From Gemmatimonadota bacterium (lineage in GTDB: Bacteria > ARS69): a DNA stretch of 64,000 nucleotides. The notes under the pieces are model-generated. The model did no database searches. It had not been told where the DNA came from and worked only from the letters and a program-made list of their open reading frames with translations. The stretch lies in contig JASLLL010000001.1 in the NCBI GenBank assembly GCA_030747075.1, positions 78,868 through 142,867 on the forward strand, given 5' to 3'. Both the position numbers and the translations under genes were made by a program. Positions 6,889-29,225 of this stretch are shown one piece after another; position 1 is the stretch's first letter; each line of letters starts with the position of its first letter.

Positions 6889-8589
6889 TCAGCCCTCGTC
6901 CGTGGCGATCTCTCTCTGCTGTGTTTCCACTCCGGCGAGCGCACGCGCAAAAGCCTCTGTGTCGAGAATCAGATCCACCGCCGCCTGCGCCTGCGTGTCG
7001 TTACGGAGGATCGCGCTGTACATGCCCGCTGTTCCGTGCACCTTGGAGAGAATCTCCCGCTCAAGAGCAAAGGCCACATACTCGGCGTTTCGATCGAAGT
7101 CGCGACCCTTCTCCAGTTCAAACCGGGCGCCCAGCCCTTCCAGCGCGGAGAGCGTTTCGGCGTCGTATTCCTCTTTTTCCAGAAGGTCACGCAGGCGCGT
7201 CAGTTCCATCTCGGCGGCCGTTTCGTACTCAAGGTCCTGCGTCTCCAAAAACGCACGGAACTCCTTCACCAGACTCTCACCCACGCGGAAGTCTGTGGGG
7301 ATCTCCTTCTCTCTCGCAATGAAGTCCACCGCAAAATGGAAGATGTGATTCTGTTGCTCCAGTTCAAATCCGAACCGGGTGCGATAGTCCCCTTCCATCT
7401 CGATGTCCGGAACAATACCGCCGTCATCCCCCGCGTCTTCGTCCGCGTCCTCGTCTTCCTCTGCGTCCTCCGACGGTTCCTCCGGGACGGCCTCCGCGTC
7501 CAGCGGGTCCTTCCCGTTGATCAGTCCGGTGGTGTCGCGCTGAAGACAACGCCCCGATGGCGTGTACCACCGCGCCGTGGTGAGCTTCAGGTTGGCTTCC
7601 GGACTCATCGGGAGAAGTGTCTGCACCAGTCCCTTGCCGTATGTCGGCTCCCCGAGAATGACCGCCCGGTCGCTGTCCTGAAGCGCACCCGCGACAATCT
7701 CCGACGCACTCGCCGTCGACCCGTTCACCAGAATCACCACGGGAATCCCGTCCGGGAATACCGTGTTCGAAGAGGAGCGGAACTCGCGACGATCCCGTTC
7801 CGACCTCCCCTGCGTGTAAGCGATCAACTCCCCCTTGGGCAGGAACATCTCCGAGACGGAAACCGCCTGCGTCAGAAGGCCACCATGATTCCAGCGAAGG
7901 TCGAAGACGATGCCCCGCGCGCCCTGATCCAACAGGTCGCGGAGCGCGGCCTCCACTTCTTCTCCGGTGTCTTCGCTGAATCGTGACAGACGCAGATAGC
8001 CAATGTCGTCACGGACAATCCGCGCGTCGGGGACGGAGTTCAGTTCGATCACATCCCGCACGATCGTCACTTCGAACGGCGCGGGTTCACCCTTGCGCCG
8101 GATGGTGATGGTGACTTCCGTGCCCTTGGGTCCGCGAAGAATGGACGCCGCCTCCGCGGTGGTGATCCCGTGCGTGCTCTCCTCTTCGATCGCGACGATC
8201 TGATCTCCGGCTCGAATGCCCAGCTTGAATGCGGGCGTTCCTTCGATGGGGGAAACCACCGTCAGCCAATCGTCGCGGATGTCGATCGAGATCCCGATCC
8301 CGCCATACTTGCCCTGCGTCTCCAGCATCAGGCGGTCGAACTGCTTCTTCTCCATAAAGTTCGTGTGCTGGTCCAGCGAGCCCAGCATCCCCTCGATGGA
8401 GGCGCGAATCAGATCTCCGGAGTCCACTTCGTCGACATACTGGTCGAATACGGCCACAAGAACTTTGTTGTAGACCTTGATGTCGTTGAAGATGTTGCGG
8501 GCGGCCTGGGTGCGCGTGGTCACCGCCACCACTGCCGCAACAACGAGAAGCGGCACAATCACACGGAATACATGACGGCGGCGGATCAT
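6889..8589 (-). CDS. Carboxy-terminal processing protease (S41 family, PDZ domain) with a long acidic C-terminal extension
   Basis: PDZ region (GGIGISIDIRDDWLTVVSPIEGTPAFKLGIRAGDQIVAIE) and S41 catalytic region (GIVFDLRWNHGGLL...LVNGSTASASEIVAGALQD...GEPTYGKGLVQT). The likely start is the internal Met MIRRRHVFRVIVPLLVVAAVVAV (TM/signal) at ~8589; the ORF extends to 8691. Confidence 0.85.
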   Translation of the reverse strand: MIRRRHVFRVIVPLLVVAAVVAVTTRTQAARNIFNDIKVYNKVLVAVFDQYVDEVDSGDLIRASIEGMLGSLDQHTNFMEKKQFDRLMLETQGKYGGIGISIDIRDDWLTVVSPIEGTPAFKLGIRAGDQIVAIEEESTHGITTAEAASILRGPKGTEVTITIRRKGEPAPFEVTIVRDVIELNSVPDARIVRDDIGYLRLSRFSEDTGEEVEAALRDLLDQGARGIVFDLRWNHGGLLTQAVSVSEMFLPKGELIAYTQGRSERDRREFRSSSNTVFPDGIPVVILVNGSTASASEIVAGALQDSDRAVILGEPTYGKGLVQTLLPMSPEANLKLTTARWYTPSGRCLQRDTTGLINGKDPLDAEAVPEEPSEDAEEDEDADEDAGDDGGIVPDIEMEGDYRTRFGFELEQQNHIFHFAVDFIAREKEIPTDFRVGESLVKEFRAFLETQDLEYETAAEMELTRLRDLLEKEEYDAETLSALEGLGARFELEKGRDFDRNAEYVAFALEREILSKVHGTAGMYSAILRNDTQAQAAVDLILDTEAFARALAGVETQQREIATDEG

Positions 8590-8739
8590 CAGGCTCGACT
8601 CCCTCCCCGGACTCGCGAATGCGGCCGGATGCGGACCATGAGTAACGGACCGGGCACGCCCGCGCGAAACCCGTTCCGGGAGATTTACCAACCCCGCTCG
8701 ACCGGAAAAGTGCCCTCGGTCGGGCGGGGAATCCGAGGT

Positions 8740-9387
8740 TTATTCGCGGTCCCGGGCAGCCATTTTCTCGGCGTGGTCGATGTCCTCCAGGGCACCCTTC
8801 GCGAAGAAACTCACCAGTTCGGAAGAACTCCCGGCCGCCTTTTCAAGGTGGGGCCGTGCCACCGGATCCCCAAACCACCCCAGCGCAAACGCCGCATCCA
8901 TGCTGACGAGTTCCTCGTCCGACCCCAGCGTCTCGATGAGGTGGGGGATGGCCTTGCGGCCTTCCTCCGCGAGAATCGGGGTGTCCTGCGTTCGGGCCAC
9001 GGCACGACACGCCATGGCTCGTGTGGACGCTTCCGGATCCTCCTGCAAGAGGCGAATGACCGGATCAATCCACCGCGGGTCGTCGATGTAGCTCACGGTG
9101 TGCATGGCATACTCGCGAACGGGAGTACGGCTGTCGCCCATCAGATCCACCAGTGCGGGAACGCTCTCGTTGCCGATGATCCTCAACTCGAAGAACATCC
9201 GATTCCGCATGGGGTCGTTGCCTTCCAGGATGGCCGTCACCATCGTCTCGATGGCCGTGGCGATCGCGGCCGCGGTATCCTCTGTCTCGTCCTGCGCGGG
9301 AGCGGGGGCCGTTGTCCCGCTCAGCGCGAACAGACACGCCCCAAGGACGAGAGTGGTCGCAAAACGGGGAATCCTCATCATCTCCAT
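8740..9387 (-). CDS. HEAT-repeat (PBS-lyase-like) secreted protein
   Basis: Signal peptide after the internal Met (MEMMRIPRFATTLVLGACLFALSG), then repeated HEAT-like units (VPALVDLMGDSRTPVREYAMHTV..., IPHLIETLGSDEELVSMDAAFALGWFGDPVARPHL). Confidence 0.55.
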   Translation of the reverse strand: MEMMRIPRFATTLVLGACLFALSGTTAPAPAQDETEDTAAAIATAIETMVTAILEGNDPMRNRMFFELRIIGNESVPALVDLMGDSRTPVREYAMHTVSYIDDPRWIDPVIRLLQEDPEASTRAMACRAVARTQDTPILAEEGRKAIPHLIETLGSDEELVSMDAAFALGWFGDPVARPHLEKAAGSSSELVSFFAKGALEDIDHAEKMAARDRE

Positions 9388-9433
9388 CCCTCCGGGTACC
9401 CGGGTTTGACGCCCCCTTGAAGCGGGGGCTGCA

Positions 9434-10204
9434 TCAGTTTCCTGCGGCGCTTGCCGCTCTCCGAACATCCTCTACCGTCTGCCGCACATACCATGACGGA
9501 TCCTTGGCCCCGGCACGAAACGCCTGTTCCACGGCTTCGTGTCCCAACCAGCGCGAGAGAGACTGAAACGCGGCATCCCGCACCACCCACTCCGAATCCG
9601 CCGCGGCACGCAGGAGAAGTTCCCGCGAGCGACGGGATCGGGACTCGGCCAGCCCCTCGGCCGTCAGACTCCGAATGGCCGGAGAGGGGTCGCCCAGACT
9701 CTTCAGCACGAGATCGTAACCCGATTCCTCTCCAATGAGAAACAGCGAGATCCCCGCGTGGGCTCTTTCAAAAGCGTCGCCCGTCAGCGCAACTCCTCGA
9801 AGAGCGGACTGTGCCTCACTCTCCCCCATGCGCCCCAGCGCACGAATGAGCAGGATTCGATGGTATCGATCCGCGAAGGTGTCCGGCTCCGTGCCCGCCA
9901 GCGACGCTTCCAGTTGGCGCAGAAGGGGGGCCGTCGCGCGGGAATCACCGATTCTCCCGAGCGCACGAATGGCCCCGGCGCGAACATCGCGAGCGGGGTC
10001 CTCCAGAAGGGGCAGCAGGGAATCCACGGCGGCCGAACCGAGCGGGATCAGTTCCTCGACCGCCGCATCCGCCGTGAGGACATCTTCCGACCGAAGGTGC
10101 CGGAGCCCGTCGTCAAGCGGACTCCCGACCGCAGGCCGGACGCTCCCGCCGCACACCGTGAGAATCACGACCATGCAGACGGGTGAGAAACGCTGAGGCG
10201 GCAT
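9434..10204 (-). CDS. HEAT-repeat protein
   Basis: HEAT-like repeats (AVDSLLPLLEDPARDVRAGAIRALGRIGDSRATAPLLRQL; PAIRSLTAEGLAESRS...DSEWVVRDAAFQSLSRW). The likely start is the internal Met MPPQRFSPVCMVVILTVCGG at ~10204; the upstream part of the 356-aa ORF is Arg/Pro-rich and not protein-like. Confidence 0.5.
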   Translation of the reverse strand: MPPQRFSPVCMVVILTVCGGSVRPAVGSPLDDGLRHLRSEDVLTADAAVEELIPLGSAAVDSLLPLLEDPARDVRAGAIRALGRIGDSRATAPLLRQLEASLAGTEPDTFADRYHRILLIRALGRMGESEAQSALRGVALTGDAFERAHAGISLFLIGEESGYDLVLKSLGDPSPAIRSLTAEGLAESRSRRSRELLLRAAADSEWVVRDAAFQSLSRWLGHEAVEQAFRAGAKDPSWYVRQTVEDVRRAASAAGN

Positions 10205-11630: not shown

Positions 11631-13154
11631 ATGGCAGGCAGCACCCTTCTCCTGGCCGGGCCGTTCCCGGATTGGACCGACTTCGCTCGGGAGGCCATCG
11701 CTGAGGGCTGGAATGTGACACGGGTGGAGTCGGGCGCAGAGGCTCTCCGACAACTCCGCGACGCCCCTCCGGACATCGCCCTTTTCCCGGTGGAACTCCC
11801 GGACGGACCCGCGCGGAACCTCATCACACTGGGAAAACGCGAGGGATTGCAAACCGACTTCGTGCTTCTGGCGCCCGAGAACGGTTCAGGCCGGGCGGAA
11901 CTCCTCGCTGAGGGAGCGGAAGATGTCCTCGACGCGACCACCCCCCATGAGCGGCTCCTGGCCCGACTCGACAGCCTTCGCCAGCGACGACGCCTCATCA
12001 ACGACCTGGAACTGACGGTTCGGGATCCCGCCATGCTGGAGATCTTCGAGCGCGTGCTTCGAGCCGCACCGCTGAAGGTCACGGTGCTCATCACGGGGGA
12101 GAGCGGCACCGGGAAGGAAGTGCTCGCTCAGGCCATCCACCGGGCCAGTGATCGTGCGGACGGGCCGTTCGTCGCCGTGAATGTCGGCGCACTCCCCGCG
12201 AATCTCCTGGAGTCGGAACTCTTCGGTCATGAGAAGGGGGCCTTCACGAGCGCGGACGGGCGGCGGATCGGTCGATTCGAGTTGGCCGATGGAGGGACGC
12301 TCTTTCTCGACGAGATCGGAGAGATGGCCACCGAGGCGCAGGTGAACCTCCTGCGCGTGTTGGAGGAGGAACGGTTTCTGCGCGTGGGCGGATCGAAGCC
12401 GGTCACCGTGGACACCCGGATCGTCGCGGCCACCAACCGCGATCTGGAGGAAGAGGTCCGCGCCGGGCGGTTCCGCAGGGATCTCTACTACCGGCTCAAT
12501 GTCGTCCACTTCCATGTGCCGCCTCTCCGGGAAAGGCGAGGAGAGATTCCCGCGCTCTTGCGGAACTTCGCGGACCGGACCGCCGCGCGACACGGGCTGG
12601 ACTTCCCGGGGTTCACGCCCGAAGCGCTCGACGCGCTGGAGACCTACGAGTGGCCCGGAAATGTCCGCGAACTCCGGAATCTGGTGGATGGAATGATCGC
12701 GCTCCGCCCGGAGAAGCCCGTGGAAGCCGCCGACCTCCCACCCCATGTTCTCCACGAAGCCGCGAGGCAGCGCCATCTGCCGGCGCTCCCGTCGGATCGT
12801 ACTCGGGAGGAGCGCGAGTTCATCATTCAGTCACTGCTGGCTCTACGGGCGGAAGTGGCCGGAATCCGGGAGCTGATTCTGGCCGGGGCGACGGGGCGCA
12901 CTCCGGTGCCTCCGGGATTCACCCCGCCGTACGGGCCCGCGGGCGGTCCCGTCTATCCGACCGGACCGGTTCGCGTAGAGGAGGACCGGGCTGACGAAGC
13001 CGGGTCTCTTGCCGACATGGAGCGCCACGCCGTGGAGCGGGCCTTGCGGGAGTCCGCGGGGAACCGGCGGAGGGCCGCTCGCGCGCTGGGCATCAGCGAA
13101 CGAACCCTCTACCGGCGCATCCGGGACTTCGGCCTTACCGAGTCCGGCGACTGA
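11631..13154 (+). CDS. Sigma-54-dependent transcriptional activator (NtrC/Fis family) with a degenerate receiver domain
   Basis: AAA+ sigma-54 interaction domain (Walker A GESGTGKE; [15 protein letters not shown], a GAFTGA variant; arginine finger and DEIGEM Walker B) and a C-terminal Fis-type HTH ([24 protein letters not shown]). The N-terminal ~120 aa are receiver-like but lack the conserved Asp pair and phospho-Asp ([11 protein letters not shown]; [12 protein letters not shown]). Confidence 0.9.
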
Positions 13155-16114: not shown

Positions 16115-17878
16115 ATGATGCGTCGTCTGATTCTCCCGCTGGGGATCCTGCTCTTCGCGCTGACGATTCGCGCGGGCCACCTCGCGGACTATCGCCACTC
16201 TCCGGCGTTCGTGGCTCCGCTGATCGACGCGCAGGTCTACGACCGGCTCGCGAGGCGGGTGGCGCAGGCAGGCCCGGGGGTGCTGGAGACGCCGTTCTAT
16301 CAGCCCCCGCTCTATCCGCTTCTCCTGGGCGCGGTCTATGCCTCGGCCGAAGGCCACCCGATGGCGCCGAGGATCTTCCAGTCGCTACTGGGGGTGGGCA
16401 CGGTCGGGCTGCTGCTTCTTCTGACTCCGCTGGCCGGAGGGCGCCGGCGGGCGGCGTACTGGGCAGCGTTCCTGTTGGCGGGCTATGGCCCCGCGCTCTA
16501 CTTCGAGGGCGAACTCCTTCCGGTAACCCTGGTGCTGACGACTTCCACGGCCGCCATCCTCCTTTTCCTGGCGGCGGACGGCCCTTCGGCAAGGCGCTGG
16601 CACCTTCCCCTGGCCGGGCTTCTGCTGGGCCTGTCGATCGCCACGCGCCCCACCGGCATCCTGCTGGCGGGAGCGGCAGCGGCGTGGTGGGTCGCGCCCC
16701 GGGGTGCGCGACTGGCGCGAACCCGCGCGCTTCTTCCGGCGGCCGCCCTCCTTCTGGCGATGGTTCTCCCGTTCACGGCGGCCAACCGGTATCGCGGCGG
16801 GGAGACGGTGCTCATCTCCACAAACGGCGGCATCAATCTCTATCTGGGGAATGGAACCGGCGCCGACTCGCTGTCCGCCATCCAGCCGGGGGCGGCGTGG
16901 GAGCGGCTGCAGCGAATGCCGCTGGCGGACGGCGTGCGTACGCCCGGTGCGGAGTCCCGCTGGTGGATGCGGCGCGCATGGTCGGAGGCGGGGGCGGATC
17001 CTGCCGCGTGGGCCGCGAACCTCTGCCGGAAGGCGGCCCGCCTGCTCGATGCGCGGGAGCCTCCACGCAATACGGACATGGAGGCGTGGCGACGCGACTC
17101 ACGCGTGCTCTCACTGCCGCTGGCCTCCTTCGCACTGGTGGCACCGCTGGCGATGGCAGGCCTCCTTCGCGGAGGACTGCGCGGGCGCTCGCGCGCTCTC
17201 CTGCTGCTGGCGCTCGGGGCTGTCGCCGCGCAGAACCTCCTCTTCTTCCCGGCGGCGCGATACCGGCTGGAGGCGGTGCCGTTGCTGTGCGTGTTCGCCG
17301 GTGCGGGAATCGATGGAATCCTCACGCGCCGGTGGACGCGGCGCGATCTTCCGCGGTGTGGCCTTGCCGTGGCCGCGGTCGCTGCCGTGGTATGGGCGGA
17401 CCTCACCGGCGGTCGCGAGATGAACCTCACGCGAACGGCCATCAACCGGGGGGTTGCACTGCGCGAAGCAGGCCGAGCGCGCGAGGCGGAAGCAGCATTC
17501 CGCAACGCACTTCGCGCCGACCCCCACGACCCCGACGCGCACCGATGGCTGGCGGAAACGCTCCTGGCCCGCGAAGACGCGACCGGGGCACTGCGCCACT
17601 TCGACGCCGCGCTGATCGCCGCTCCGGACTATGTCCGGGTTCTCCTCGGGCGGGCGCAGGCGGCGGAGCTGGCCGGCGTATCCGGGGCGGAGGACGCATA
17701 CCGCCGTGCGCTGGCCGTGGATCCGTACTCGACGGATGTTCGCCTCAACTATGGCGTGTGGCTGGCCCGGGCCGGACGAAGGGACGAGGCGCAAGAGATG
17801 TTCCGGTCGGGCCTGGAGCTGGAACCCGGGGACACCCGATTCTCCACGAACCTCCGACGCCTGCGGTCCGGGCTGTGA
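16115..17878 (+). CDS. GT-C fold glycosyltransferase (PMT_2/ArnT-like, GT39/GT83) fused to C-terminal TPR repeats (TMTC-like)
   Basis: About 11 predicted TM helices with PMT_2/ArnT-type N-terminal features ([32 protein letters not shown]...[12 protein letters not shown]). The C-terminal ~190 aa are TPR repeats ([42 protein letters not shown]...). Confidence 0.75.
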
Positions 17879-17921
17879 TATTATCTCCGCTCATTTGTCC
17901 CCGTTGAAGGAGTGGTGAACC

Positions 17922-20888
17922 ATGCTTGCCGCGTTTCTTCTCGCATTCGCCACGGGCGTCGCATTCCCGGCCTGGCAGGAAATGGCCGCCCGCGCCTGCG
18001 GCACATTCCCGCAGGTATCCTGGGGGCTTCTTGCGCTCGGCGGCGCCAGTCTTGCGGCCGGAATCCTGAGCGCAAGCCCGGCGCGGGGAAGGTTCGCACC
18101 GCCGCTGCTGCTCCTGATTCCCGCTGCGGCGGCTGCGGGAATCGGCCTGCTGACGGCGGCAACCGGATCGCTTCTCACACTCTTCGGCCTTCCCATGAAC
18201 GCGGCGCCGGCTGCCAGAGCGGTGGGAAGCATCCTTGCCGCGCTCCCCTTTCTGGGACTCCCCGCATTCCTGCTCGGAATGGCGAGTGGGCAAGCGGTCG
18301 CTGCCCGGTTGAGTGCGATCGTCCCTGCCGCGGCGGCCGGGGTTCTCGCGGCGATGGCCGCGGAGTGGGCCTTTGCTCCCGGACTGGCCCAGCGCGGAAT
18401 CCATGCCGCCGTGCTTCTGGTGGCGGCCGCGGCAGCGCTCCGGTGGGCACCCACCACAGATGCGGAAGGCCGCGCGCAGGCCGAAGACCGGGGCGACGGG
18501 CTGGCTCTCGCATCCGCCGCGTGCGTGCTCGCTGCGGGTGCGGTGGCACTGCACCTGCTTGCAGCCGGGAACCTCCGCCTCCTTCTGGCGGATTCCCTCG
18601 GCGGAGTACCGCTCATTCCCACGATGACCGCCCTCGGGTGGATGCTCGGCGGCGCTCTCGGCATCCTCTTCGCGCGGTGGCTCGGACGCGCCGGAATCCC
18701 GTGGGCCGGAGTCGCGCTGACTCTGGCGGCGGTCGCCACGCTCCGCGCAACCGGCAGTCTCCCGAAGGACATCTACCTGCTCCAGACCGTGATGGTCGAC
18801 CACCCCGGTCCGGACGCCCTCCTCCACTGGGCCACGCCGAGAGTCGCGCGGCTGGTCCTTCCGCAGGCGGTCCTTTCGGGGATGGCGTTTTCTCTCCTTC
18901 CGGGAAGCATCCCGAGACCGACCCGGACCCGGGCGGTCGGACTGCTGACGCTTGCGGGAACTCTGGGCGCACTGATTGCCCTGGCCGCCGTCGGGATGAC
19001 GCTTCCGCGCGCGGGCCTCGACACGGTTCTCCGGGGAGCCGCGTTCACAATCGCCCTCCTCGGCATACTGCTGACCCTTCTGTCCGCCTCCCCCCGAAGG
19101 CGCACTCTCCGCATCGGCGTCGGAGTGGTGGGTCTGCTCGCAGTCCTCTTCGCACATCAGGCCACGCCCGTGCCCAGGACCACGGAACTACTGGTGGAAC
19201 GGTCCATGCTCGTGACTCGCTCCTCCGGCACCGCGGCCCAGACGAGCTGGCTCACCCTTCATCACGACGAACTCTCCGGGTCAGTCTCCGTCGCCCGGCG
19301 CGGAGGCGTGCGGCGCATTCTGACCAACGGGCGCTTCGAAATGGCGACCGCATCCGCCCGCAAGAGCCATGCGATGCTCGCGCATGTCCCGCTGCTCCTC
19401 CACGCCAAGCCGGAGCGCGCGCTTCTGCTGGGGGCGGGCAACGGGATTGCCCTGGCCGCCATCATGACGCATCCGCTGGAAGAGGTGGCGTGCGTGGATG
19501 TCTCCCGCGCCCGCTTCCATGCGCTCGCCCAGCTCGGCGGAGAGACCGAGGCCGCACTGCGCGACCCACGCCTTTCCGTCATCCCCGGGGACCCCGCCGC
19601 AGTGCTCCGGCGCGCGGACCCGTTCGATGTCATTCTCTCGACCATGGCGGGACGGTGGTCTGCGCTCGCCGCGCGCACCTCGTCGGTGGAGTTCTACTCA
19701 CTCGCCCGTGACCGGCTTCGTCCGGACGGGCTCTTCTGCCAGTGGATTCCCGCACTCAGCCTGAGCCGGGACGGGCTGGAAGCGGTGCTCGCGACCGCCG
19801 CCGCCGTGTTCCCGCGCGTGGAGATCTGGGAGGCTTCGGAGGGAGATCTCCTTCTTCTGGCAAGCCGGACGCAATCTGCGGCACGAGATCTGCGCCCCCT
19901 TCTCGCGGGTTACGGGGAACCCGCGGTCGCCGCGAGCTGCCGTCGGTCCTGGATTGGCGATCCCGTGACGCTTCTCTCGCACTTCCTCGTGTCCGACGCG
20001 ACCGTACGGCGCATCTCCCAGACGGCACCGGGACGACACACGCTGGACTCCCGGACTCTCACTCGCGAAGAAACCGCACGGCGCCTCCACGGTCGGCTCG
20101 TGAATCCCGTGGCCGGGCTCGCAGCCATCAGGGACGATGCCCTGGCCACCTACGCGGGAAACCCCGGCGACGGATTCCCGGAGGCTCTGCGCATCGCAGT
20201 CCGGGCACGCGATCTGGAACATGAGGGGCGCGCCATCGAACGGGACGGGGAAGCGCTCGATGCCGTTGAGAAGTACGAGGCTGCGCAGGAAATGAACCCG
20301 AATGACCCGTCGCTTCGGCGCTCGCTCGCATCCGTTCACAATGACATCGGCATGGCCTACGCCGGGCGGAATGCCTTCACGGCCGCCCACCACAACTTCC
20401 GCACGGCCATGGAAACGGACACCACTTTCGCGCTGGCCTTTGCGAACATGGGGCACCTGCTGATTCAGAACAACAACATGGAGTATGCGCTCTCGGTCAC
20501 GCACGAAGCCACGAAGCTGGATCCGGAGAACGAGATCTACTGGGCACAGATGGGCCGCATCATGAAGCGCAACACTCGCTATGAAGAGGCGATTCCCTTC
20601 TTCGAAAAGGCATTGCAAAGGAACCCGGACTATGTCATCGCCATTCAGGAGTATGTGGACTGCACCCTGGCCGTGCAGGACATTCCCGATCTTCTGTGGG
20701 GAATCCGGACGCTCAAGAGGGCATTGGAGGTCGATCCGGGGAATCGGGAGATCCGGACGCGCATCACGCGATACGAAGACGCCCACAAGCGGCACTTCCG
20801 TTCCGACGAATCCGCTGTGCCGTCCGCCTCGCCCGACTCCGCGCGAGGTTCCGCCGCGCCGGACTCCGGTGCCCGGCGCGCGGGCTAG
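17922..20888 (+). CDS. Polytopic membrane protein fused to a spermidine-synthase-like (aminopropyltransferase-fold) domain and C-terminal TPR repeats
   Basis: N-terminal ~430 aa form a multi-TM region. The middle is spermidine-synthase-like (LLLGAGNGIALAAIMTHPLEEVACVDVS...DVILSTMAGRW...GLFCQWIP). The C-terminal part is TPR (MNPNDPSLRRSLASVHNDIGMAYAGRNAFTAAHHNFRTAMETD...). Confidence 0.7.
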   Translation: MLAAFLLAFATGVAFPAWQEMAARACGTFPQVSWGLLALGGASLAAGILSASPARGRFAPPLLLLIPAAAAAGIGLLTAATGSLLTLFGLPMNAAPAARAVGSILAALPFLGLPAFLLGMASGQAVAARLSAIVPAAAAGVLAAMAAEWAFAPGLAQRGIHAAVLLVAAAAALRWAPTTDAEGRAQAEDRGDGLALASAACVLAAGAVALHLLAAGNLRLLLADSLGGVPLIPTMTALGWMLGGALGILFARWLGRAGIPWAGVALTLAAVATLRATGSLPKDIYLLQTVMVDHPGPDALLHWATPRVARLVLPQAVLSGMAFSLLPGSIPRPTRTRAVGLLTLAGTLGALIALAAVGMTLPRAGLDTVLRGAAFTIALLGILLTLLSASPRRRTLRIGVGVVGLLAVLFAHQATPVPRTTELLVERSMLVTRSSGTAAQTSWLTLHHDELSGSVSVARRGGVRRILTNGRFEMATASARKSHAMLAHVPLLLHAKPERALLLGAGNGIALAAIMTHPLEEVACVDVSRARFHALAQLGGETEAALRDPRLSVIPGDPAAVLRRADPFDVILSTMAGRWSALAARTSSVEFYSLARDRLRPDGLFCQWIPALSLSRDGLEAVLATAAAVFPRVEIWEASEGDLLLLASRTQSAARDLRPLLAGYGEPAVAASCRRSWIGDPVTLLSHFLVSDATVRRISQTAPGRHTLDSRTLTREETARRLHGRLVNPVAGLAAIRDDALATYAGNPGDGFPEALRIAVRARDLEHEGRAIERDGEALDAVEKYEAAQEMNPNDPSLRRSLASVHNDIGMAYAGRNAFTAAHHNFRTAMETDTTFALAFANMGHLLIQNNNMEYALSVTHEATKLDPENEIYWAQMGRIMKRNTRYEEAIPFFEKALQRNPDYVIAIQEYVDCTLAVQDIPDLLWGIRTLKRALEVDPGNREIRTRITRYEDAHKRHFRSDESAVPSASPDSARGSAAPDSGARRAG

Positions 20889-22118: not shown

Positions 22119-23543
22119 TCAGCGGGCGATCACCATCTTGCCGGTCTGCCCGAAGTCCGCTCCGTCCTCCAGGATTCCCTCAATCCGATAGAGGTAGACT
22201 CCCGGCGCGATCGCTTCTCCCCGATCTGTCTCCAGATTCCACGCCACCGTCGTGGGCGAAGTACTGCGCGGGTTTCCTGGACCGTGGGAGAAGGTGGCGA
22301 CGAGTTCCGCCGACACACTGAACACCTGGATATCACAGGTCGGAGGAAGGTTTGTGAAGACCACCTTTGCTTCCCCCTCTTCCCAGGGGGCCGACCCCAT
22401 GTAGGGGTTGGGCACCACGAAGGCCTCCATGCTCTGGACCCGTGAATCCCGCCCGGGGTAGAGAACTTCCGTGGCCGGGCTGATGCCCTCGTAGACCTCG
22501 TTCTGCTCATTCCCGAGAAACCCGAGGTCGAACACCGTCACACGGTACTTGTACGGGAAGTCCCGATGGATGTTCCGGTCCTCCAGATGGAACGACCGGA
22601 TTGCCGGGTCGTAGTCCAACGACAGCATGGAGGAGGAGTCCACATCCGCAAAGGTGTACCGGCTGGCGCAGGGTATGATCTCCCCGAGGAGCGTGAAGGA
22701 ATCCAGGTCCGGAAGATCTGAGCGCCAGATGTGGTAGCCCGCGAGCGCTTCCACATCGAAGTCCACCTTCCCGGTGGGCGGGAACAGGTAGTTTGCGGAC
22801 CAGATGGCCGTCTCTCCCGAAGAGACCGGACCCTCCTGGAGAGAAATCTCCATCCCGTCCATGATGGCGTAAGCGTCTCCGGCTGCCGTGATCGACAGTT
22901 CCAGCGTCTCTTCCGGAATAGTCGCCTCTTCCGGCAGTGGGCCGGTGACGAGAACCTGAAGCGTGTCCGCCAGCGAGGCCACCGTGTTGAGCGCCACGAT
23001 CTGGTAGTCCGCGTAAGGATAGCTGGTGGTGCAGAGGCCTCGAACGGTGACCAACCCCCCCCCCAGTCCGGTGGTTGGTTGATGCACATTGGATGAAAAG
23101 CGAACGCTCAGCCCCGTGCCATACTCGGAATTCAACGCATAGCCGGTCTCTGCATAGCGGGTGCTCAGTGTTTCGGCAGTTACGGGGAATCCGGTACCCG
23201 CCGTCTGATCGAAATACTCCACAAACACCTCGGTGACCAGGCCGATGCCACTGTCTTGCGGCTTTCGGGTAATGCGAACGCGAGAATCACAATCTCCTGC
23301 GTAGTCACCGTCAACGGTCACGGTAGAGCTGGAGTCGGGGTCCCAGCTCCCATAGTAGAAGTTGCCGTAGTCTCTTCCTGCGACTTGAGGCGCTTCCTCC
23401 CAGGTCAACACCACGGAGTTGGGGCGAGAGGAGGAGGCGCTTTCTATCGAGGGCAGAGCCAGGTTCTGCGCCGCGAGGTCAACCGGTGCGGACAGCGCAA
23501 ACACAAGGGCCGCGACGGAAGAGGTGTGGCGAGCATTCATCAT
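22119..23543 (-). CDS. Secreted protein with a Por/T9SS-type (FlgD-Ig-like) C-terminal domain
   Basis: Signal peptide MMNARHTSSVAALVFALSAPVDLAAQ. The C-terminal ~70 aa match the pattern of T9SS C-terminal sorting/FlgD-Ig-like domains (VFSVSAELVATFSHGPG...VAWNLETDRGEAIAPGVYLYRIEG...GKMVIAR). The stop overlaps the upstream gene's ATG (ATGA). Confidence 0.6.
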   Translation of the reverse strand: MMNARHTSSVAALVFALSAPVDLAAQNLALPSIESASSSRPNSVVLTWEEAPQVAGRDYGNFYYGSWDPDSSSTVTVDGDYAGDCDSRVRITRKPQDSGIGLVTEVFVEYFDQTAGTGFPVTAETLSTRYAETGYALNSEYGTGLSVRFSSNVHQPTTGLGGGLVTVRGLCTTSYPYADYQIVALNTVASLADTLQVLVTGPLPEEATIPEETLELSITAAGDAYAIMDGMEISLQEGPVSSGETAIWSANYLFPPTGKVDFDVEALAGYHIWRSDLPDLDSFTLLGEIIPCASRYTFADVDSSSMLSLDYDPAIRSFHLEDRNIHRDFPYKYRVTVFDLGFLGNEQNEVYEGISPATEVLYPGRDSRVQSMEAFVVPNPYMGSAPWEEGEAKVVFTNLPPTCDIQVFSVSAELVATFSHGPGNPRSTSPTTVAWNLETDRGEAIAPGVYLYRIEGILEDGADFGQTGKMVIAR

Positions 23544-25588
23544 GGGTGGGTCTCTCCAAAGTCGTCAAGAACCGCCACCAGGAAATCCCTGAACGCTCCG
23601 CGGTCCACGAAGTAGGGATGAAGCGCGAGAAACACAGCATTGCCGTTGAGTCCCGGACCCTTGAGCCAGCGGAGACCTACGGCGTCCTGCGTGTCATCCT
23701 TCGCGTAGATCGGCTCCAGCACACCGTCGGAAACATCCATTCGGAGAATCAATCCCTGGTCGAAGTAACTGAACGCCCGGACATTCGGACCATGCGTCCA
23801 GCTCAGTGGGTCGAAGTGGAGATCCGGGTAGGGGTTGACACCCTCGGTGATGAGCGACCGGGCCACCCGCATCCCGGACTCCTCGTCAATGTGTGCGGAT
23901 GTTTGTGAGGACTGAACCATCTCTATGCCCAGGCGCGTGTATGCGAAGTGCGGAACATAGGTGGTATCCGTGACCGTCGTGATGAACTGGACCGGATATT
24001 CCTGCGGCGCTGTCTCAAACCCCGTCTCCAGCTTCTCGAAGAAGATCATGGCCTGCGTCGGGGTGTGACCGCAAATGAAGAGGTTCCCCCCGCTGCCCAG
24101 ATAGGAACTCAGAACATTCGGAAGATCCAGGAAGTACCGACTGAGTACGGTCTGGTCATCACCGCTGAAGATGTCCCCTCCGTGGAACCAGAAGGTACTG
24201 GACGCATTGTTCATCAGACTCACCGAGGGAGGCTCTGATCCTTCCGTCTCCCAGACGCGGTAGTTGACTCCGGTGAACATGGACTCGATCCAGGCACGCT
24301 CCATGTCGGGGTAGAACCAGGGCCATGCGGCGTCTGCCTCGCCGGTCTGTAGCGGGACCGTGTCGAGAACAATCAGTACAAACCGTTCGGCGGAAGGAAC
24401 AAACCGTGGCCCGTCAAAGACTTCAAAGCGGGCCTCGAGCGTCGTGGTGGCCCCGCCCCGATCCACCGCGCGGACCCAGAAGCTGTGAACTCCCTCGTCC
24501 GGGTACCAGAAGACCTCGGGTTCCCCGGGAGCCGTCTCCGGAAACGATGTCCTCGTGATGGAATACGGCTCCCAGTCGAGGGAGTCCTCCACAGAGTAGG
24601 TGTATCCGGCAACCGGCAGCGTGTTGGGCCTCTGGGTCCCAAGCCAGCGGAACCGAACGCCCTCCGCCCCGAAAATCTCCCGCGAAGTCGTCTGGTTCCC
24701 GGAACGCCAGCTTCCTGCGGAGTTGGAAGTCAGCGAGAGGTTGGGGCCGGAAACAAACTCGGAGATGTTAAATATCCGCCCGTTGGCCGGCGAGGTCAGG
24801 ACCTTCTCCACGGCACCGGCATTGTCCACGGCGCGGACAGCGAATAGATACTGGCCCACCGGAACATCCGTGAAGGTCACGGTGTCGACTTCTGTCTCCT
24901 GCCAGACGAGGTTCTCTGTGTATCCCCCTGCCGGGTCCGGGAAGAAGGTGAGCGTGTCGACCCAGGCGAGAACTTGCCCCATGCTCGGGTTCTCCACGCC
25001 TCCATCCATGGCGTAGTAGCTGAAGAGGAGAAGTGCGTATCGGTAGTACTCCACAACTCCGTCGTCATCATTACCTTCCCACTGGAAGTCCAGTCTCTGC
25101 GGCCAGGAGGCGTTCTGACCCGGCCCATAGGATATCTCGGTGTAGGGAGCGACCGTCTTGGAGTTGAAGCTCCGCACTGCCGGGTAGGGATCTACTGTTC
25201 CCTCGTTGTCCACGGCCCTCACATAGAAGGTGTGATACTCCTCATAGACGGAGTCCTGGGGAGATCCCGTGCCCGGAAGCGGTTCCACACAGCAGACTTC
25301 CGCTGCGGACAGTGTGAAGAGACTGTCGTTTGTGTAGATGGGGCCTTCCCAGTTGTCAGGAGACTCCCAGGAAATCTCGTAGTGATCGACAAAGCCGTCC
25401 TGGTCCCATCCGAACCAGAAGAGTTCCACTGCGAAACCTGTGTCCAGCGCTTCGGGCGGACCGGCGGAGACTTGCGTGTTCGGTGCCTGGTTGGGAAGCA
25501 GCGATCCACCCTCTCCATCGCATCCGGCACCCACTGCCCCGATGAGAAGCAGCATCGTGAGCGACCGCAGTGAGTCAGGAAGTCTCAT
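23540..25588 (-). CDS. Lipoprotein with tandem fibronectin-III-like repeat modules
   Basis: Lipoprotein signal (LTMLLLIGAVGAGC). It carries the recurring FN3 F-G strand-like motif Y/FxVRAVDxxG (FYVRAVDNEGTVDPYP; FAVRAVDNAGAVEKV; FWVRAVDRGGATTT) about every 100-150 aa. Confidence 0.65.
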   Translation of the reverse strand: MRLPDSLRSLTMLLLIGAVGAGCDGEGGSLLPNQAPNTQVSAGPPEALDTGFAVELFWFGWDQDGFVDHYEISWESPDNWEGPIYTNDSLFTLSAAEVCCVEPLPGTGSPQDSVYEEYHTFYVRAVDNEGTVDPYPAVRSFNSKTVAPYTEISYGPGQNASWPQRLDFQWEGNDDDGVVEYYRYALLLFSYYAMDGGVENPSMGQVLAWVDTLTFFPDPAGGYTENLVWQETEVDTVTFTDVPVGQYLFAVRAVDNAGAVEKVLTSPANGRIFNISEFVSGPNLSLTSNSAGSWRSGNQTTSREIFGAEGVRFRWLGTQRPNTLPVAGYTYSVEDSLDWEPYSITRTSFPETAPGEPEVFWYPDEGVHSFWVRAVDRGGATTTLEARFEVFDGPRFVPSAERFVLIVLDTVPLQTGEADAAWPWFYPDMERAWIESMFTGVNYRVWETEGSEPPSVSLMNNASSTFWFHGGDIFSGDDQTVLSRYFLDLPNVLSSYLGSGGNLFICGHTPTQAMIFFEKLETGFETAPQEYPVQFITTVTDTTYVPHFAYTRLGIEMVQSSQTSAHIDEESGMRVARSLITEGVNPYPDLHFDPLSWTHGPNVRAFSYFDQGLILRMDVSDGVLEPIYAKDDTQDAVGLRWLKGPGLNGNAVFLALHPYFVDRGAFRDFLVAVLDDFGETHP

Positions 25589-27081
25589 CGCCGTTCTCCT
25601 TCCCGGATCTGCCCGGACACGGGAGAAGATTCCCGAATGAGTCCCGAGACCACCTGGAACTCAAGAGAATCCGGTTCCGAGGGTCGGCGCTCCAGACTTG
25701 GATCCAGTGTCTGGATGATCAGCAGGGCCGTGCCGAGATTCCCCGAGGTAAAGACATGTTCGATGAAAAGACTGTCCGGATCCATCAGAACCGCCTGCGA
25801 AAACGACGGGTCGAAGGAGAACCTCCAGCGATAGGTCAGGCTGTCGGGATCGCTGTCCAGATCGTCCCCCTCAAACAGGAACCACGCAGGCTGGCCGATC
25901 TCAATGCTCGATGTGGGAACCATGACCGCGTTTGTGTCTGCCGGATCCGTGTGCGTCGCCGCCGTGATGGTCACGCTTGGGCGGTAGTTGACATGCAGGG
26001 GGATCACATCGAGTGGCGTTTCCATCTGCCCGTAGATATCACGCCCGCTCACCGTGAAAGATCGGGGATCGGCGGAGGTCGACGGAATGGACGGAACCAG
26101 GGAGTCGCAGGTCTCTACGGTTGGGAGGCCTGTCCCCTGGAAGTTCCACACATAATCCACGACGGGCCCGTCCACATCGGTGGAAGACCAGCAGAAACTC
26201 ATCGTCCCGCCCATGGGGATGGTGTCCTGAATCCCGCCAAACCCATCTTCATAGTAGGTCTCCAGCGTATCGTTCAGCCAGGGGCGTGCCAGTCTGTAAA
26301 CAATGGACGAGCGATCGATGGTGGTCACTGGATCGAAGTTTGAGTGGACCAGGAAACGCGCCGGCGTATCTGAGACAGCACCCGCATCATCCACTGCATT
26401 GACCACCACGGTGTGCGTACCCGGTGTCAAATCTTCCCGGGCGAGTGTGGTGTCGAATCGGTCGTGCTCATGAACATCTTCGGCATTGACCTGGGATGTC
26501 CAGCTGACGACTTCCCCATCGGCATCGGTGCCCGTCCAGGAAATCTCCATGTCACTGAAGACCTCCATGGTGTCGCCATCGTTGAACACCCGCGGAACCC
26601 CGTTCACCTTGAAGGACTCCGGAAGGAAGATCACCTCCGGGGTGTCCGTCGTGAATGCGAGAAAGCGAACGGTATCCGGAGTGGCATCCTGCTTGTTGCC
26701 GTTATCCACAGACCGGATGAAGAAGGTGTGCGCACGGCTTCCGACATCGTCCACCTGAAACAGGAAGACGCTGTCGGTCAGGGCGGTCCAGTGCCACATC
26801 TCCGCCTCGGATGTGTCGTCCATGGCGAAGCGGAAACCATCTACGGTTCCGTCCGGATCCTCTCCACGCCAGTAGAGGTGGGCGCGGTAGTAATAACTGT
26901 CCGGGTTGTCCGGATCCGCCGACTCATCCGGCCCCTGTACAATGAAGGTCTCCGGCGGGAGGTTCCGGTCGATCAAGGCGATGTCCTCTCGCTCGCACCC
27001 GCCTACGACAATCCCTGCCAGGACGACGGCCAGCGCGGCAAGGCGCCACCAACCAGAATATTGTGCCCGCTGCAACTTCAT
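25585..27081 (-). CDS. Lipoprotein paralog with fibronectin-III-like repeat modules
   Basis: Lipoprotein signal (LAALAVVLAGIVVGGC). It carries the same repeat motif (FFIRSVDNGNKQDATP; VVVNAVDDAGAVSDTP) and is Asp-rich. Its stop overlaps the upstream gene's start. Confidence 0.65.
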   Translation of the reverse strand: MKLQRAQYSGWWRLAALAVVLAGIVVGGCEREDIALIDRNLPPETFIVQGPDESADPDNPDSYYYRAHLYWRGEDPDGTVDGFRFAMDDTSEAEMWHWTALTDSVFLFQVDDVGSRAHTFFIRSVDNGNKQDATPDTVRFLAFTTDTPEVIFLPESFKVNGVPRVFNDGDTMEVFSDMEISWTGTDADGEVVSWTSQVNAEDVHEHDRFDTTLAREDLTPGTHTVVVNAVDDAGAVSDTPARFLVHSNFDPVTTIDRSSIVYRLARPWLNDTLETYYEDGFGGIQDTIPMGGTMSFCWSSTDVDGPVVDYVWNFQGTGLPTVETCDSLVPSIPSTSADPRSFTVSGRDIYGQMETPLDVIPLHVNYRPSVTITAATHTDPADTNAVMVPTSSIEIGQPAWFLFEGDDLDSDPDSLTYRWRFSFDPSFSQAVLMDPDSLFIEHVFTSGNLGTALLIIQTLDPSLERRPSEPDSLEFQVVSGLIRESSPVSGQIREGERR

Positions 27082-27172: not shown

Positions 27173-29047
27173 CTACGGCGTGAATGTCAGTTCCCACACA
27201 TTCCACACGCCAACGCCCCAGGGCTCTGCTTCCAGATACAGTTCATCGAACTGATTGGAAGGACAGTCCGTCATGGAGACGAGAAGCGTCCATGACGCGG
27301 TGTCCGCGCTCCTGATCCAACTGGGGTGGAATACCTGGCGTGAACAGCTGAAGTTGTCCGAACTGCCGGGCGTCGGAACGAGAACCGGATCACCGACCGG
27401 CACCATGTTCGAAAGTTCCTGCACGAACAGCTTCCATGTGTCGGTGTCATTACTGACATATGCCAGATACTGCGTGCCATCGGGCATCGTCTCCGAGAGC
27501 GTCGGCCACTGAATCGGGCTCGGGCTTCCCAGGACGGGAGAAAGAAATGCCTTCGCTCCGGATGTGTCCAGTTCCCAGATCGTCGAGACATCCGACGATG
27601 CCCTGTAGAAGTCCGCCAGAAGTCCGGGGTGATCCTCGATCCTCGAAGCGTCGCTGCCAACCCGGGCCACGCGTACGGAACCCACGCCCGGCGAACCGCG
27701 CTTCACAAAGGTGCGACCGGATCCTGACATGTCAAAGTCAATACTGGTCGTCTCTCCCGGGGACAACTGGAGTGTCACGGTGTCAGCCACCGCACCCCGA
27801 TCCGCGATCACGGTAAAGTCCTCCAGATAGGCCTCGACCACCTCTCCGAAGGCGTCCACCTGGAAGGGAAGGATGCACTCATAGACGAGGTATTCGCCCG
27901 GGTTGTTTACGATCCCCACAAGGGGAAAGTCCTCACTCGTCACCCGGCCGTCATCGCGAGTCCAGAAGACATTGGTGGCTCCCTCATTGGATGTGATCTG
28001 CAGCACGGAACGCACCAGGCGGAAGACAAGGTCCACGACCATGTCGTCATTGGGATTCACGACGATCTCTTGAGTGAGCACGGTGTCACAGTAGGTCACC
28101 TGCGTGCTGTCCAGGAACCGGGAGTCCCTGCGGGCACCCAGGAGAAGAGTTCCGCCCGTTCCCACAGGGACGGACTGAAGAAGCCCGGGCGTCATGAGCG
28201 TGTCCGGACCCATGAGGATGGGGTAGGTGGGCTCCAGAAGGTCCAGGTCGCGAAAATAGACATAACTGGCGCTCTCCAGTGTGTCCGGGGGGACGACGGA
28301 GTCATCCACCTCCCAGGACCGCACGGAGATGTCGGCCACGCCCACCCGGTTCTGAGACTGAAAGAGCCTGGTGCCATCCGAGGAGACCGAGGGATGCCGA
28401 TCCACATAGGACTCCGAGGTGGCAAAAGAGGGGGGCGGAAATGTCCACTGCGTGAGAACCCCGGGAGCTCCGATGTCCACGCTGAATACCTTCTGGTCCC
28501 GCACCAGGAGAAGCGTGGTCTCGTCAGCCCATGCGGGATCCCGCACATCGGTGGCGACCATCGTGAAGCCGGACAGCACCGGAGCTTCGGTGGACGAAAC
28601 CGCGATGTCTACCGTCCACACTTCATAGTGTCCCGCGAGGCTCATGTGCGTGAATGCAATCCGGGTTCCGGAGGGCGACCACCGGGGGCGAAGGTTCAAC
28701 CCCGGGCCCATGTCGTTGTCGGTCAACTGAAACCGCATTCCATCCGAGCGCCTGAGCAGCCAGAGGTCTTCGTCGGTTTCCCGGTTCTCGTCCGGCGCCC
28801 CGGGGTCTTTTCGTATGGTGCTGTATGCGATGAAGTCCGAGTTGGCCGGATGCGCGTTCGCGTACCTCCCGAGGTCTGTCGTGAGCTTCACCCAGTTGTC
28901 GCAGTCGCGACAGGTGACCGGCACATCGTCACCCGTTTCCGAGCAACCGGTGGCCACGAAAGCCAGAGCGAAGACCGCAACAAACCAGACGCGCGTATGC
29001 CGAGTAATGGAGCGATTCACGAGTTTCACGCCTCCGCAAACGGGCAT
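27173..29047 (-). CDS. TolB-like beta-propeller lipoprotein
   Basis: The real start is probably the internal Met at ~29047 (MPVCGGVKLVNRSITRHTRVWFVAVFALAFVATGC, lipobox ATGC). The first ~104 aa of the 728-aa ORF are Arg/Pro-rich and not protein-like. PD40/TolB-like blades are present (PRWSPSGTRIAFTH; DRHPSVSSDGTRLFQSQ). Confidence 0.6.
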   Translation of the reverse strand: MPVCGGVKLVNRSITRHTRVWFVAVFALAFVATGCSETGDDVPVTCRDCDNWVKLTTDLGRYANAHPANSDFIAYSTIRKDPGAPDENRETDEDLWLLRRSDGMRFQLTDNDMGPGLNLRPRWSPSGTRIAFTHMSLAGHYEVWTVDIAVSSTEAPVLSGFTMVATDVRDPAWADETTLLLVRDQKVFSVDIGAPGVLTQWTFPPPSFATSESYVDRHPSVSSDGTRLFQSQNRVGVADISVRSWEVDDSVVPPDTLESASYVYFRDLDLLEPTYPILMGPDTLMTPGLLQSVPVGTGGTLLLGARRDSRFLDSTQVTYCDTVLTQEIVVNPNDDMVVDLVFRLVRSVLQITSNEGATNVFWTRDDGRVTSEDFPLVGIVNNPGEYLVYECILPFQVDAFGEVVEAYLEDFTVIADRGAVADTVTLQLSPGETTSIDFDMSGSGRTFVKRGSPGVGSVRVARVGSDASRIEDHPGLLADFYRASSDVSTIWELDTSGAKAFLSPVLGSPSPIQWPTLSETMPDGTQYLAYVSNDTDTWKLFVQELSNMVPVGDPVLVPTPGSSDNFSCSRQVFHPSWIRSADTASWTLLVSMTDCPSNQFDELYLEAEPWGVGVWNVWELTFTP

Positions 29048-29225
29048 GGGGGGACGCACCCGACCGCCGGGATGGGTCCCCGAAAAGCGGAGCCGACTAT
29101 ACGCAGCGCGCTGGAAAGGTGTCAAGCGGCGGAACGACTGCGCCCAAACCCGCAACTGCGGATTCTTCAAGTGATTGCGACCTGTTCCCCACGGGTTCCC
29201 CGACCCGCCCGGACGGGGAGGCGGG

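Follow-up and report, generated by a model that had tools for sequence, protein, structure and literature searches.

The 64,000-nucleotide stretch of DNA analyzed here (positions 78,868 to 142,867, forward strand, of contig JASLLL010000001.1 in the Gemmatimonadota assembly GCA_030747075.1; henceforth the window, with a GC content of ~66%) encodes three polytopic membrane proteins with C-terminal tetratricopeptide repeats (TPRs), to which we refer as P1, P2 and P3. On balance, we favor the view that P1, P3 and a TPR-less paralogue encoded close to P3 are glycosyltransferases of the GT-C_A type facing the periplasm, that the TPRs of P1 and P3 recruit an acceptor that is probably an exported protein, and that P2 is a partner in this process. 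Judging from their sequences, P1 and P3 belong to a very large uncharacterized bacterial family and not to the TMTC family. Two annotations are thereby put right, that of P1 and P3 as TMTC orthologues and that of P2 as a spermidine synthase. Provided that these enzymes do O-glycosylate proteins, much of the glycosylation of envelope proteins beyond the Bacteroidota and Proteobacteria models would be unexplored. The window offers a compact and testable cluster, in which a putative donor synthase and three distinct GT-C enzymes are encoded along with a phosphotransferase-type domain and exported proteins, and cultured carriers of the family (Archangium) exist.

The three genes under study are the following:

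16115-17878, plus strand: P1, 587 aa, with a GT-C_A domain (PMT_2/ArnT-like) at residues 1-435 containing 11 transmembrane (TM) helices, and about four TPRs at residues 438-585 (Pfam, AlphaFold2, family profile)
17922-20888, plus strand: P2, 988 aa, with ~13 TM helices at residues 2-414, a spermidine-synthase-fold domain at residues 443-650, a helical linker and TPRs at about residues 796-964 (Pfam/NCBIfam, AlphaFold2, Foldseek)
29226-31667, minus strand: P3, 813 aa (811 aa in one NCBI record), a paralogue of P1 with a GT-C_A domain at residues 1-483 and ~9 TPRs at about residues 485-800 (PMT_2 match, identity to P1, invariant residues)

All three are genuine genes, as an earlier note made from the letters of the window had proposed: their third-position GC of 0.78-0.81 is of the coding type, the independent gene calls of an NCBI assembly agree with the open reading frames (ORFs), and identical database proteins (P0001, P0093 and P0298, respectively) stem from metagenome-assembled genomes labelled Gemmatimonadota/Gemmatimonadetes. 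Each protein has dozens of homologues, with E-values down to 1e-120 and below, and among species-level genomes those with the nearest relatives bear the labels Candidatus Eiseniibacteriota, Gemmatimonadota or just "bacterium". The domain layouts put forward in the same note hold for P1 and P3 (GT-C plus TPRs) and for P2 (TM region, spermidine-synthase fold and TPRs), save that the helices of P2 number ~13 and not ~12.

The GT-C domains of P1 and P3

The assignment of both N-terminal domains to PMT_2/ArnT-like GT-C enzymes, already suggested in the earlier note, is borne out by predicted structure as well as by profile comparison. The structure of P1 predicted with AlphaFold2 from an alignment of 53 homologues (pLDDT 95.4, pTM 0.93) displays 11 TM helices and a TPR domain at residues 438-585; its first outer loop contains two short helices, and TM7 and TM8 are connected by a helical loop of 110 residues. 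Foldseek searches with this model return STT3, AglB and Pmt4 at TMq values of 0.38-0.44, ranked after TPR matches. The Pfam profile PMT_2 (cut-off 26.1 bits) matches 25 of 28 family members; P3 scores 31-32 bits, over the cut-off, and P1, at residues 63-220, 24.5-25.3 bits, narrowly short of it. No match was obtained when the GT-C domains were compared one by one with the sequences of the PDB; a family profile built from 28 isolated N-terminal domains matched ArnT (5ezm, E 4.9e-6) as its only solved structure, over the first seven helices and the region equivalent to TM9-TM10 of P1. In this alignment D38 of P1 falls on ArnT D55, the loop-1 aspartate of the motif DEGRY, and Y383 falls on ArnT Y345, residues that we take, from the published ArnT structure, to be the catalytic and the phosphate-contacting one, respectively, in the binding of sugar and undecaprenyl phosphate.

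Residues D38, R382 and R384 are invariant across 28-53 family sequences, and the full invariant set (D38, G168, G245, N246, P296, E315, R382 and R384) is present in P3 without exception. P1 and P3, which are 29% identical over 562 aa (E 4e-32) and have the signatures TNGG(I/L)NLY(L/I)GNG and FF..ARYRL..VP in common, are by these sequence measures paralogues. Their first loops read LIDAQVYD (P1) and GLDSKYYED (P3), with DA as the family consensus. Hence, the refuting observation named in the earlier note, a missing loop-1 acidic motif, was not made: the aspartate aligned with the catalytic one of ArnT is present in both proteins, although the second acid is replaced by Ala in P1 and by Ser in P3; the structure comparison and motif check suggested in the earlier note thus yielded GT-C relatives and the aspartate but not the DE motif. 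The Arg-rich loops of P1 alternate as in a protein with its N-terminus inside and its C-terminus outside, and the TPRs of P1 and P3 are predicted to lie on the periplasmic side.

Taken in mechanistic terms, P1, P3 and the TPR-less paralogue would take a sugar from a polyprenyl-phosphate carrier, with the invariant loop-1 D38 as the catalytic base. The lipid phosphate would be bound by two residues of the TM7-8 loop, K306 and E315, and by the RYR motif that follows TM9, while the periplasmic TPR array of P1 and P3 would most likely recruit the acceptor, probably an exported protein, as in P. aeruginosa TfpW and eukaryotic TMTC/TMEM260. What the analysis shows directly are folds, conserved residues, gene order and the recurrence of that order; topology, donor, acceptor and any coupling of P1 to P2, be it physical or functional, are inferred.

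The size of the family to which these domains belong is considerable. A search with the GT-C profile recovered, among 1.84 billion cluster representatives (at 50% identity), 17,600 with E<=1e-30 and 56,735 with E<=1e-10, the top 150 of which are mostly 560-960 aa long, corresponding to a GT-C domain plus a C-terminal extension, and at least 485 family matches were confirmed in contigs drawn from one genome per species. The family ranges over Latescibacterota (several per genome), Gemmatimonadota, Eiseniibacteriota and Myxococcota including the cultured Archangium, as well as Kiritimatiellia, Victivallales, Acidobacteriota, Zixibacteria, Sumerlaeota and Phycisphaerales. Orthologues of P3 proper are found at 52-63% identity, and a metagenome scan with P3 returned TPR matches only.

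The earlier note had gone further and read P1 and P3 as bacterial members of the TMTC family that O-mannosylate Ig-like/FN3 domains of four neighboring lipoproteins. The defining features of TMTC1-4 are 11 TM helices with the N-terminus in the cytoplasm and the TPRs in the lumen, a loop-1 DD motif and a DUF1736 segment in the TM7-8 loop; their nearest structure is ArnT, and "homologues even among prokaryotes" are mentioned by the authors (PMC7801869). The likeness of P1 and P3 to TMTC1-4 (CAZy GT105) is real as far as layout and predicted topology are concerned: both groups belong to the GT-C_A/PMT clan, have 11 TM helices with the N-terminus in the cytoplasm and C-terminal TPRs on the far side of the membrane (a side that is predicted in the case of P1), find their nearest solved homologue in ArnT and occur as several paralogues per genome. 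The kinship, in contrast, does not stand. DUF1736 (PF08409) is absent from P1 and P3 at E<=10 and from all 28 family members at E<=0.1, loop 1 carries DA or DS in place of DD, ArnT is the only solved match, and the family has a signature of its own that is unlike TMTC, with NGGxNxYxGN in the TM7-8 loop and RYR after TM9. In sequence terms, P1 and P3 have a TMTC-like architecture yet fail two of the features that define TMTCs, and we consider the earlier reading as a whole improbable, a judgment on which the exported proteins discussed below also bear.

Other GT-C enzymes are likewise matched in part only. With respect to PMT (GT39), P1 scores 17 bits against PF02366 (cut-off 22.7) and P3 gives no match, neither has a MIR domain, and the DE motif of PMT loop 1 is present only in the TPR-less paralogue (35603-37162). 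ArnT (GT83, PDB 5ezm/5f15) is alike in the aspartate and tyrosine aligned with D38 and Y383 and in the presence of an ArnC-like glycosyltransferase of family 2 (GT2) in the window, but has 13 TM helices, a small C-terminal periplasmic domain, no TPR and lipid A as its acceptor, as against the 11 TM helices and TPR tail of P1.

A closer functional precedent than TMTC is, by analogy, TfpW of Pseudomonas aeruginosa group IV, a protein of 646 aa with its N-terminus inside, 11 TM helices, a periplasmic TPR and ArnT as best template; it is a type IV pilin D-arabinofuranosyl transferase needed for pilin glycosylation, and its acidic loop-1 motif is needed for activity (bioRxiv 10.1101/2020.04.19.049825). 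The likeness to P1 is one of described layout, i.e. 11 TM helices, periplasmic TPR and ArnT-like core, and it lends the idea that TPRs mark protein-directed enzymes, voiced in the earlier note, a bacterial precedent. Unlike P1 and P3, with their DA and DS, TfpW has a DDX motif and is encoded directly after pilA; the gene neighborhoods of P1 and P3 in the window showed no adjacent pilin gene. Our literature search found no characterized bacterial enzyme of the GT-C-plus-TPR layout besides TfpW.

P2 and its pairing with P1

P2 starts 43 bp after P1, and the two genes are bracketed by a divergent PPDK gene and a convergent Iso_dh gene, which the stop of P2 overlaps. When 88 fetched loci (with flanks of +/-10 kb) were scanned with a hidden Markov model of the P2 family, the pair was found to be kept in all eight related loci of the close clade with enough flank, in addition to the window itself. 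Beyond this clade, a P2-like gene adjoins a GT-C-TPR gene in five Latescibacterota loci, one Gemmatimonadaceae locus and one Myxococcota locus (Hyalangium), and lies within a few kb of one in two further loci. Adjacent P1-like and P2-like genes are always co-directional, and in a neighbor-joining tree of GT-C domains the paired genes fall into three separate clades. The pairing is, at the same time, facultative as well as recurrent: in the Latescibacterota/Gemmatimonadaceae clade, an otherwise identical cluster has a P2-like gene in 6 of 14 loci. This recurrence in separate clades speaks for the functional link between P1 and P2 suggested earlier, and we infer from it that the two genes form a unit. 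The soluble domain and TPRs of P2 are probably periplasmic. The recurrent pairing with an uncharacterized family of membrane proteins, to which the label spermidine synthase is routinely and wrongly given, is the one element here that may repay experiments.

In the Latescibacterota/Gemmatimonadaceae cluster the gene order is PPIase-TPR protein, TPR protein, TPR+FG-GAP+ASPIC protein, type IX cargo with F5/8C and CHU_C domains, a 900-aa unknown protein, GT-C-TPR enzyme, two CHU_C cargo genes and a 306-aa protein, and in distant relatives the GT-C-TPR gene has genes for type IX secretion cargo with a CHU_C domain and for FG-GAP/ASPIC proteins as its neighbors. This cluster of ~10 genes around the GT-C-TPR gene was seen in 13 loci; the 900-aa protein, which has no family match, always stands directly upstream of the GT-C gene.

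The most fitting view of P2 itself is that of an accessory membrane protein whose spermidine-synthase fold has been put to another use. The AlphaFold2 model of P2 (pLDDT 78.8) shows ~13 TM helices up to residue 414, followed by a beta-rich N-terminal subdomain with a Rossmann domain, a helical linker and the TPRs. Foldseek aligns it with many spermidine synthases (SpeE) at TM-scores of 0.65-0.75, the Pfam profile Spermine_synth matches residues 483-634 with 47 bits, and the family profile of the soluble domain finds SpeE structures at E 1e-33 and METTL13 (5wcj) at E 2.8e-5. The labels "spermidine-synthase-like" and aminopropyltransferase fold given in the earlier note are therefore correct as to fold, but the catalytic residues are replaced. 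In the alignment to Thermotoga maritima SpeE, the motif GGGDGG becomes GAGNGI and IIIDSTDP becomes ILSTMAGR, so that D101, D170 and D173 of the enzyme correspond to N507, T574 and G577 of P2 (D101N, D170T, D173G). In the syntenic lineage of P2 the residues are similarly non-acidic, (S/H)(T/Q)x(A/S)G; the motifs of the wider family read GxGxG and SEPSNPW. In aminopropyltransferases these acids select decarboxylated S-adenosylmethionine and deprotonate or bind the amine. With all three replaced, P2 is a protein with the fold of a spermidine synthase and not a credible spermidine synthase; on the evidence of these residues it cannot be an ordinary aminopropyltransferase.

That P2 is nonetheless a genuine membrane-anchored polyamine aminopropyltransferase, adjacent to P1 by coincidence, strikes us as very unlikely. 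The Spermine_synth score, a match to PRK03612 (NCBIfam) at E 3.6e-17 and the rank of SpeE as best fold and profile match would be in keeping with it. However, in addition to the replaced acids, the NCBIfam scores lie far under their cut-offs (62 bits versus 472 in one case, and 26.1 bits versus 40 for NF037959, the fused MFS/spermidine synthase, where MFS stands for major facilitator superfamily), P2-like genes adjoin a GT-C-TPR gene in separate clades, and a missing G-loop acid is, as the fungal enzyme NHMT demonstrates, the mark of an enzyme that does not transfer aminopropyl groups. We regard P2 as more likely a partner of P1, be it as a methyltransferase-type or purely binding module or as a transporter of donor or cofactor. 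No MFS_1 match was obtained in the TM region of P2 at E<=1, homologues of P2 in loci L018 and L007 match MFS_1 over their first ~10 helices, and by its sequence P2 is a divergent relative of the fused MFS/spermidine synthase family.

The placement of the soluble part of P2 follows from the number of helices. An MFS core ends in the cytoplasm, and a 13th helix would therefore put the soluble part in the periplasm. Arg clusters precede TM11 (RPTRTR) and TM13 (PRRRTLR), and the last TM helix of the P2 family has 2.44 Lys and Arg residues in its N-terminal flank versus 1.80 downstream, the bias being present in 31 of 50 sequences. A periplasmic location of the soluble part is thus favored, although not settled.

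Fungal NHMT (AN4663) offers an instructive comparison, having a polytopic membrane anchor, modifying secreted proteins and having been recognized as a non-spermidine-synthase by the loss of its G-loop acid (PMC10349129). NHMT and the C-terminal domain of METTL13, both of them spermidine-synthase-like enzymes that methylate proteins, share with P2 a spermidine-synthase fold in which the G-loop acid is replaced. They differ in that the 7 TM helices of NHMT are unique to fungi and come without TPRs, whereas P2 has ~13 MFS-like helices and TPRs; in addition, P2 has lost the E and N retained elsewhere in its family at the positions of D170 and D173. A bolder proposal is that P1 and P2 make up a two-enzyme periplasmic module modifying exported proteins, with P1 as a TPR-guided GT-C O-glycosyltransferase, P2 as a likewise TPR-guided transferase of the spermidine-synthase fold and the bacterial counterpart of NHMT, and the MFS-like domain of P2 carrying a cofactor or lipid-linked donor across the membrane; we consider this improbable. 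If it were true, the wider MFS-SpeE-like family, found inside type IV pilus loci of Xanthomonadales-type genomes, would constitute an unrecognized class of extracytoplasmic protein-modifying enzymes. Apart from the analogy to fungal NHMT, our literature search found nothing on fused MFS/spermidine synthases or on a link of such proteins to pilus genes.

Members of the P2 family do occur in pilus loci, in Stenotrophomonas rhizophila and another genome. In two loci, MFS-spermidine-synthase-like genes for ~1000 aa stand within type IV pilus genes, between pilB/pilin and pilR/pilS (L007, 8001-11033; L008, 8001-10973), and in L008 two pilin genes come next, then genes for a 647-aa membrane protein, which has the size of TfpW and gives a weak signal for TPRs, for a GT2 and for a GT4. 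This 647-aa protein was considered as a member of the P1/P3 GT-C family and rejected (hhalign probability 0.4%). Another neighbor of note is a sigma-54 activator without receiver domain (11631-13154, plus strand), which is syntenic with PPDK-P1-P2 in all close relatives; sigma-54 activators also lie near three distant relatives. A sigma-54 promoter upstream of P1, sought on account of this activator, was dismissed: there is no -24/-12 site, and matches across the window do not exceed chance.

The P3 gene cluster and the acceptor

P3 lies in a co-directional, translationally coupled cluster on the minus strand, in which stop and start codons overlap or nearly touch. The genes upstream of P3 are, from the nearest to the farthest:

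31674-35606, minus strand: YfhO-like polytopic membrane protein fused to a Phosphodiest domain of the alkaline-phosphatase superfamily, 1310 aa (Pfam; start revised)
35603-37162, minus strand: a third GT-C, assigned to the same family as P1 and P3, 519 aa, without TPR (PMT_2, hhalign, start codon analysis)
37159-37887, minus strand: GT2 glycosyltransferase, 242 aa, candidate polyprenyl-phosphate sugar synthase (Glycos_transf_2 E 1.9e-28, NCBIfam)

The stop of the GT2 gene overlaps the GTG start of the GT-C gene (GTGA), the stop of the latter overlaps the start of the YfhO-like gene (ATGA), and the YfhO-like gene ends 6 bp before P3. The best NCBIfam match of the GT2 is ArnC (3e-22), followed by PgfS, dolichyl-phosphate hexose transferase, AglJ and PpgS, all below their equivalog cut-offs, which makes it a candidate maker of the lipid-linked sugar donor. 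The TPR-less GT-C matches PMT_2 with 52.1 bits (E 1.1e-13) and our family profile A3 with an hhalign probability of 99.8% (E 7e-29 over 387 columns), and its first loop reads RYDETEF. The YfhO-like protein has a C-terminal Pfam YfhO match, a Phosphodiest match at E 8e-28 and weak matches to PgfM2/PgfM1. P3 would then work with an ArnC/PgfS-like GT2 as donor maker, with the TPR-less paralogue and with a YfhO-like GT-C fused to a phosphotransferase-type domain.

The boundaries of these genes required some revision. A long ORF at 31674-36035 (1453 aa) was rejected as a single gene because its first 143 codons, Arg-rich with 40 K/R, shadow the 519-aa PMT_2 gene, which is held in another frame by ORF 35603-37459 (minus strand) upstream of the YfhO-like gene; the true start of the latter is at 35606. 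The whole gene order is kept in an orthologous locus, L092, at 55% identity. In that locus (5949-9998) the YfhO-like and Phosphodiest parts are two genes, of 818 and 505 aa, and the contrast with the single 1310-aa ORF of the window points to a fusion specific to one lineage or else to a fission. At 37880-41364 (minus strand), immediately upstream of the GT2, a second Phosphodiest protein and a CehA/McbA-type metallohydrolase (DUF3604) are encoded, both of them kept in L092.

Extracytoplasmic glycosylation systems combine a lipid-sugar synthase with GT-C enzymes (PMC11127046). The P3 cluster resembles these three-component systems and Pgf of Streptococcus mutans in that a GT2 polyprenyl-phosphate sugar synthase is encoded with GT-C enzymes, and in the weak PgfS and PgfM2/PgfM1 matches, all of them far below family cut-offs; it differs in having three different GT-C genes and an alkaline-phosphatase-type domain. 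No GtrA-like flippase was seen in the P3 cluster.

It is with regard to the acceptor that our reading meets its main rival, according to which the acceptor is a lipid or glycan (lipid A/core, capsule, exopolysaccharide or a teichoic-acid-like polymer) and the TPRs are a periplasmic scaffold to an export or assembly machine. The family profile matches ArnT alone among solved structures, and ArnC is what the GT2 resembles most. In B. subtilis and Listeria, teichoic acids are glycosylated by enzymes of the YfhO type; domains of the alkaline-phosphatase type, known from LtaS/EptA-like enzymes, occur here as a fusion or in adjacent genes; and weak matches to the TPR scaffolds of BcsC, PgaA and PilW were obtained. 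On the other hand, PMT_2/ArnT enzymes directed at lipids or glycans are, to our knowledge, devoid of TPR arrays, the characterized GT-C-TPR enzymes (TfpW, TMTC and TMEM260) are all protein-directed, and the presence of several paralogues per genome among secreted cargo genes fits acceptor-specific protein enzymes. For these reasons we hold a lipid or glycan acceptor to be unlikely, albeit less so than any other alternative considered here, and we continue to favor a protein.

Several observations nevertheless weigh against the reading of P1 and P3 as protein glycosyltransferases with P2 as partner. The PMT_2 score of P1 itself stays under the Pfam cut-off; ArnT, the nearest solved relative by sequence, modifies a lipid and not a protein; and periplasmic TPRs also serve polysaccharide export scaffolds. 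As regards P2, the P2-like gene is missing from 8 of the 14 Latescibacterota/Gemmatimonadaceae loci and from most of the distant loci, so that the enzyme family can do without it; its soluble part is placed in the periplasm on the strength of a helix count in a model of medium confidence together with a modest charge bias; and a SAM-type (S-adenosylmethionine) cofactor site kept in the periplasm is hard to rationalize.

Exported proteins encoded downstream of P3

Four genes for exported proteins follow P3 on the same strand, the first of them after a gap of 178 bp:

29096-29125, minus strand: sigma-70-like promoter match TTGACA-18-TATAGT (11/12), within the 178 bp that separate P3 from the first lipoprotein gene (consensus match only)
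27173-29047, minus strand: predicted lipoprotein, 624 aa, lipobox VATGC, weak PD40/TolB-like beta-propeller signal (sequence, Pfam/NCBIfam, gene call)
25585-27081, minus strand: predicted lipoprotein, 498 aa, lipobox VVGGC, one PKD/Ig-like domain (sequence, PKD 26.8 bits)
23540-25588, minus strand: predicted lipoprotein, 682 aa, lipobox GAGC, three copies of F.VRAVD..G (sequence; no Pfam match at E<=1)
22119-23543, minus strand: secreted protein, ordinary signal peptide, 474 aa, C-terminal 70 aa weakly type IX CTD-like (C-terminal domain; sequence, PorU match)

The earlier description of these as four lipoproteins built from FN3/Ig-like repeats is accurate in part. Three of the four do carry lipoboxes and one has a PKD domain, but the fourth has an ordinary signal peptide and FN3 is found in none of them by Pfam, even at E<=1; their domain matches amount to the single PKD (26.8 bits, 25585-27081) and one weak PD40 repeat. 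A motif F.VRAVD..G occurs ~5 times among them, a pattern of repeats that would fit Ig-like modules.

The gene arrangement might seem to favor these proteins as substrates of a TMTC-like P3, inasmuch as P3 and the four genes are co-directional, their order is kept in relatives at 52-63% identity, and the PKD/Ig-like domain and repeated beta-sandwich-type motifs recall the Ig-like targets proposed for it. Yet, besides the missing DUF1736 and DD motif, no FN3 domain is detected, homologues of the exported proteins are restricted to the close, syntenic lineage, two distant relatives of P3 stand alone, and a promoter-like site stands before the lipoprotein genes (one found at 29096-29125 versus a mean of 0.0 in 50 shuffles). 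A terminator-like site between P3 and the first lipoprotein gene was looked for and none was found. The co-occurrence of the lipoproteins with P1/P3-type enzymes, which the earlier note had proposed to examine across genomes, is thus confined to the close lineage, and its view of them as obvious substrates is not sustained. The four proteins are possible acceptors simply by virtue of being exported and adjacent, and nothing singles them out.

A minor feature concerns the last of these genes (22119-23543, minus strand), whose product gives, at residues 402-472, a weak match to the CTD of the type IX sortase PorU (E 1.7e-4), a hint that this fourth protein may be type IX cargo.

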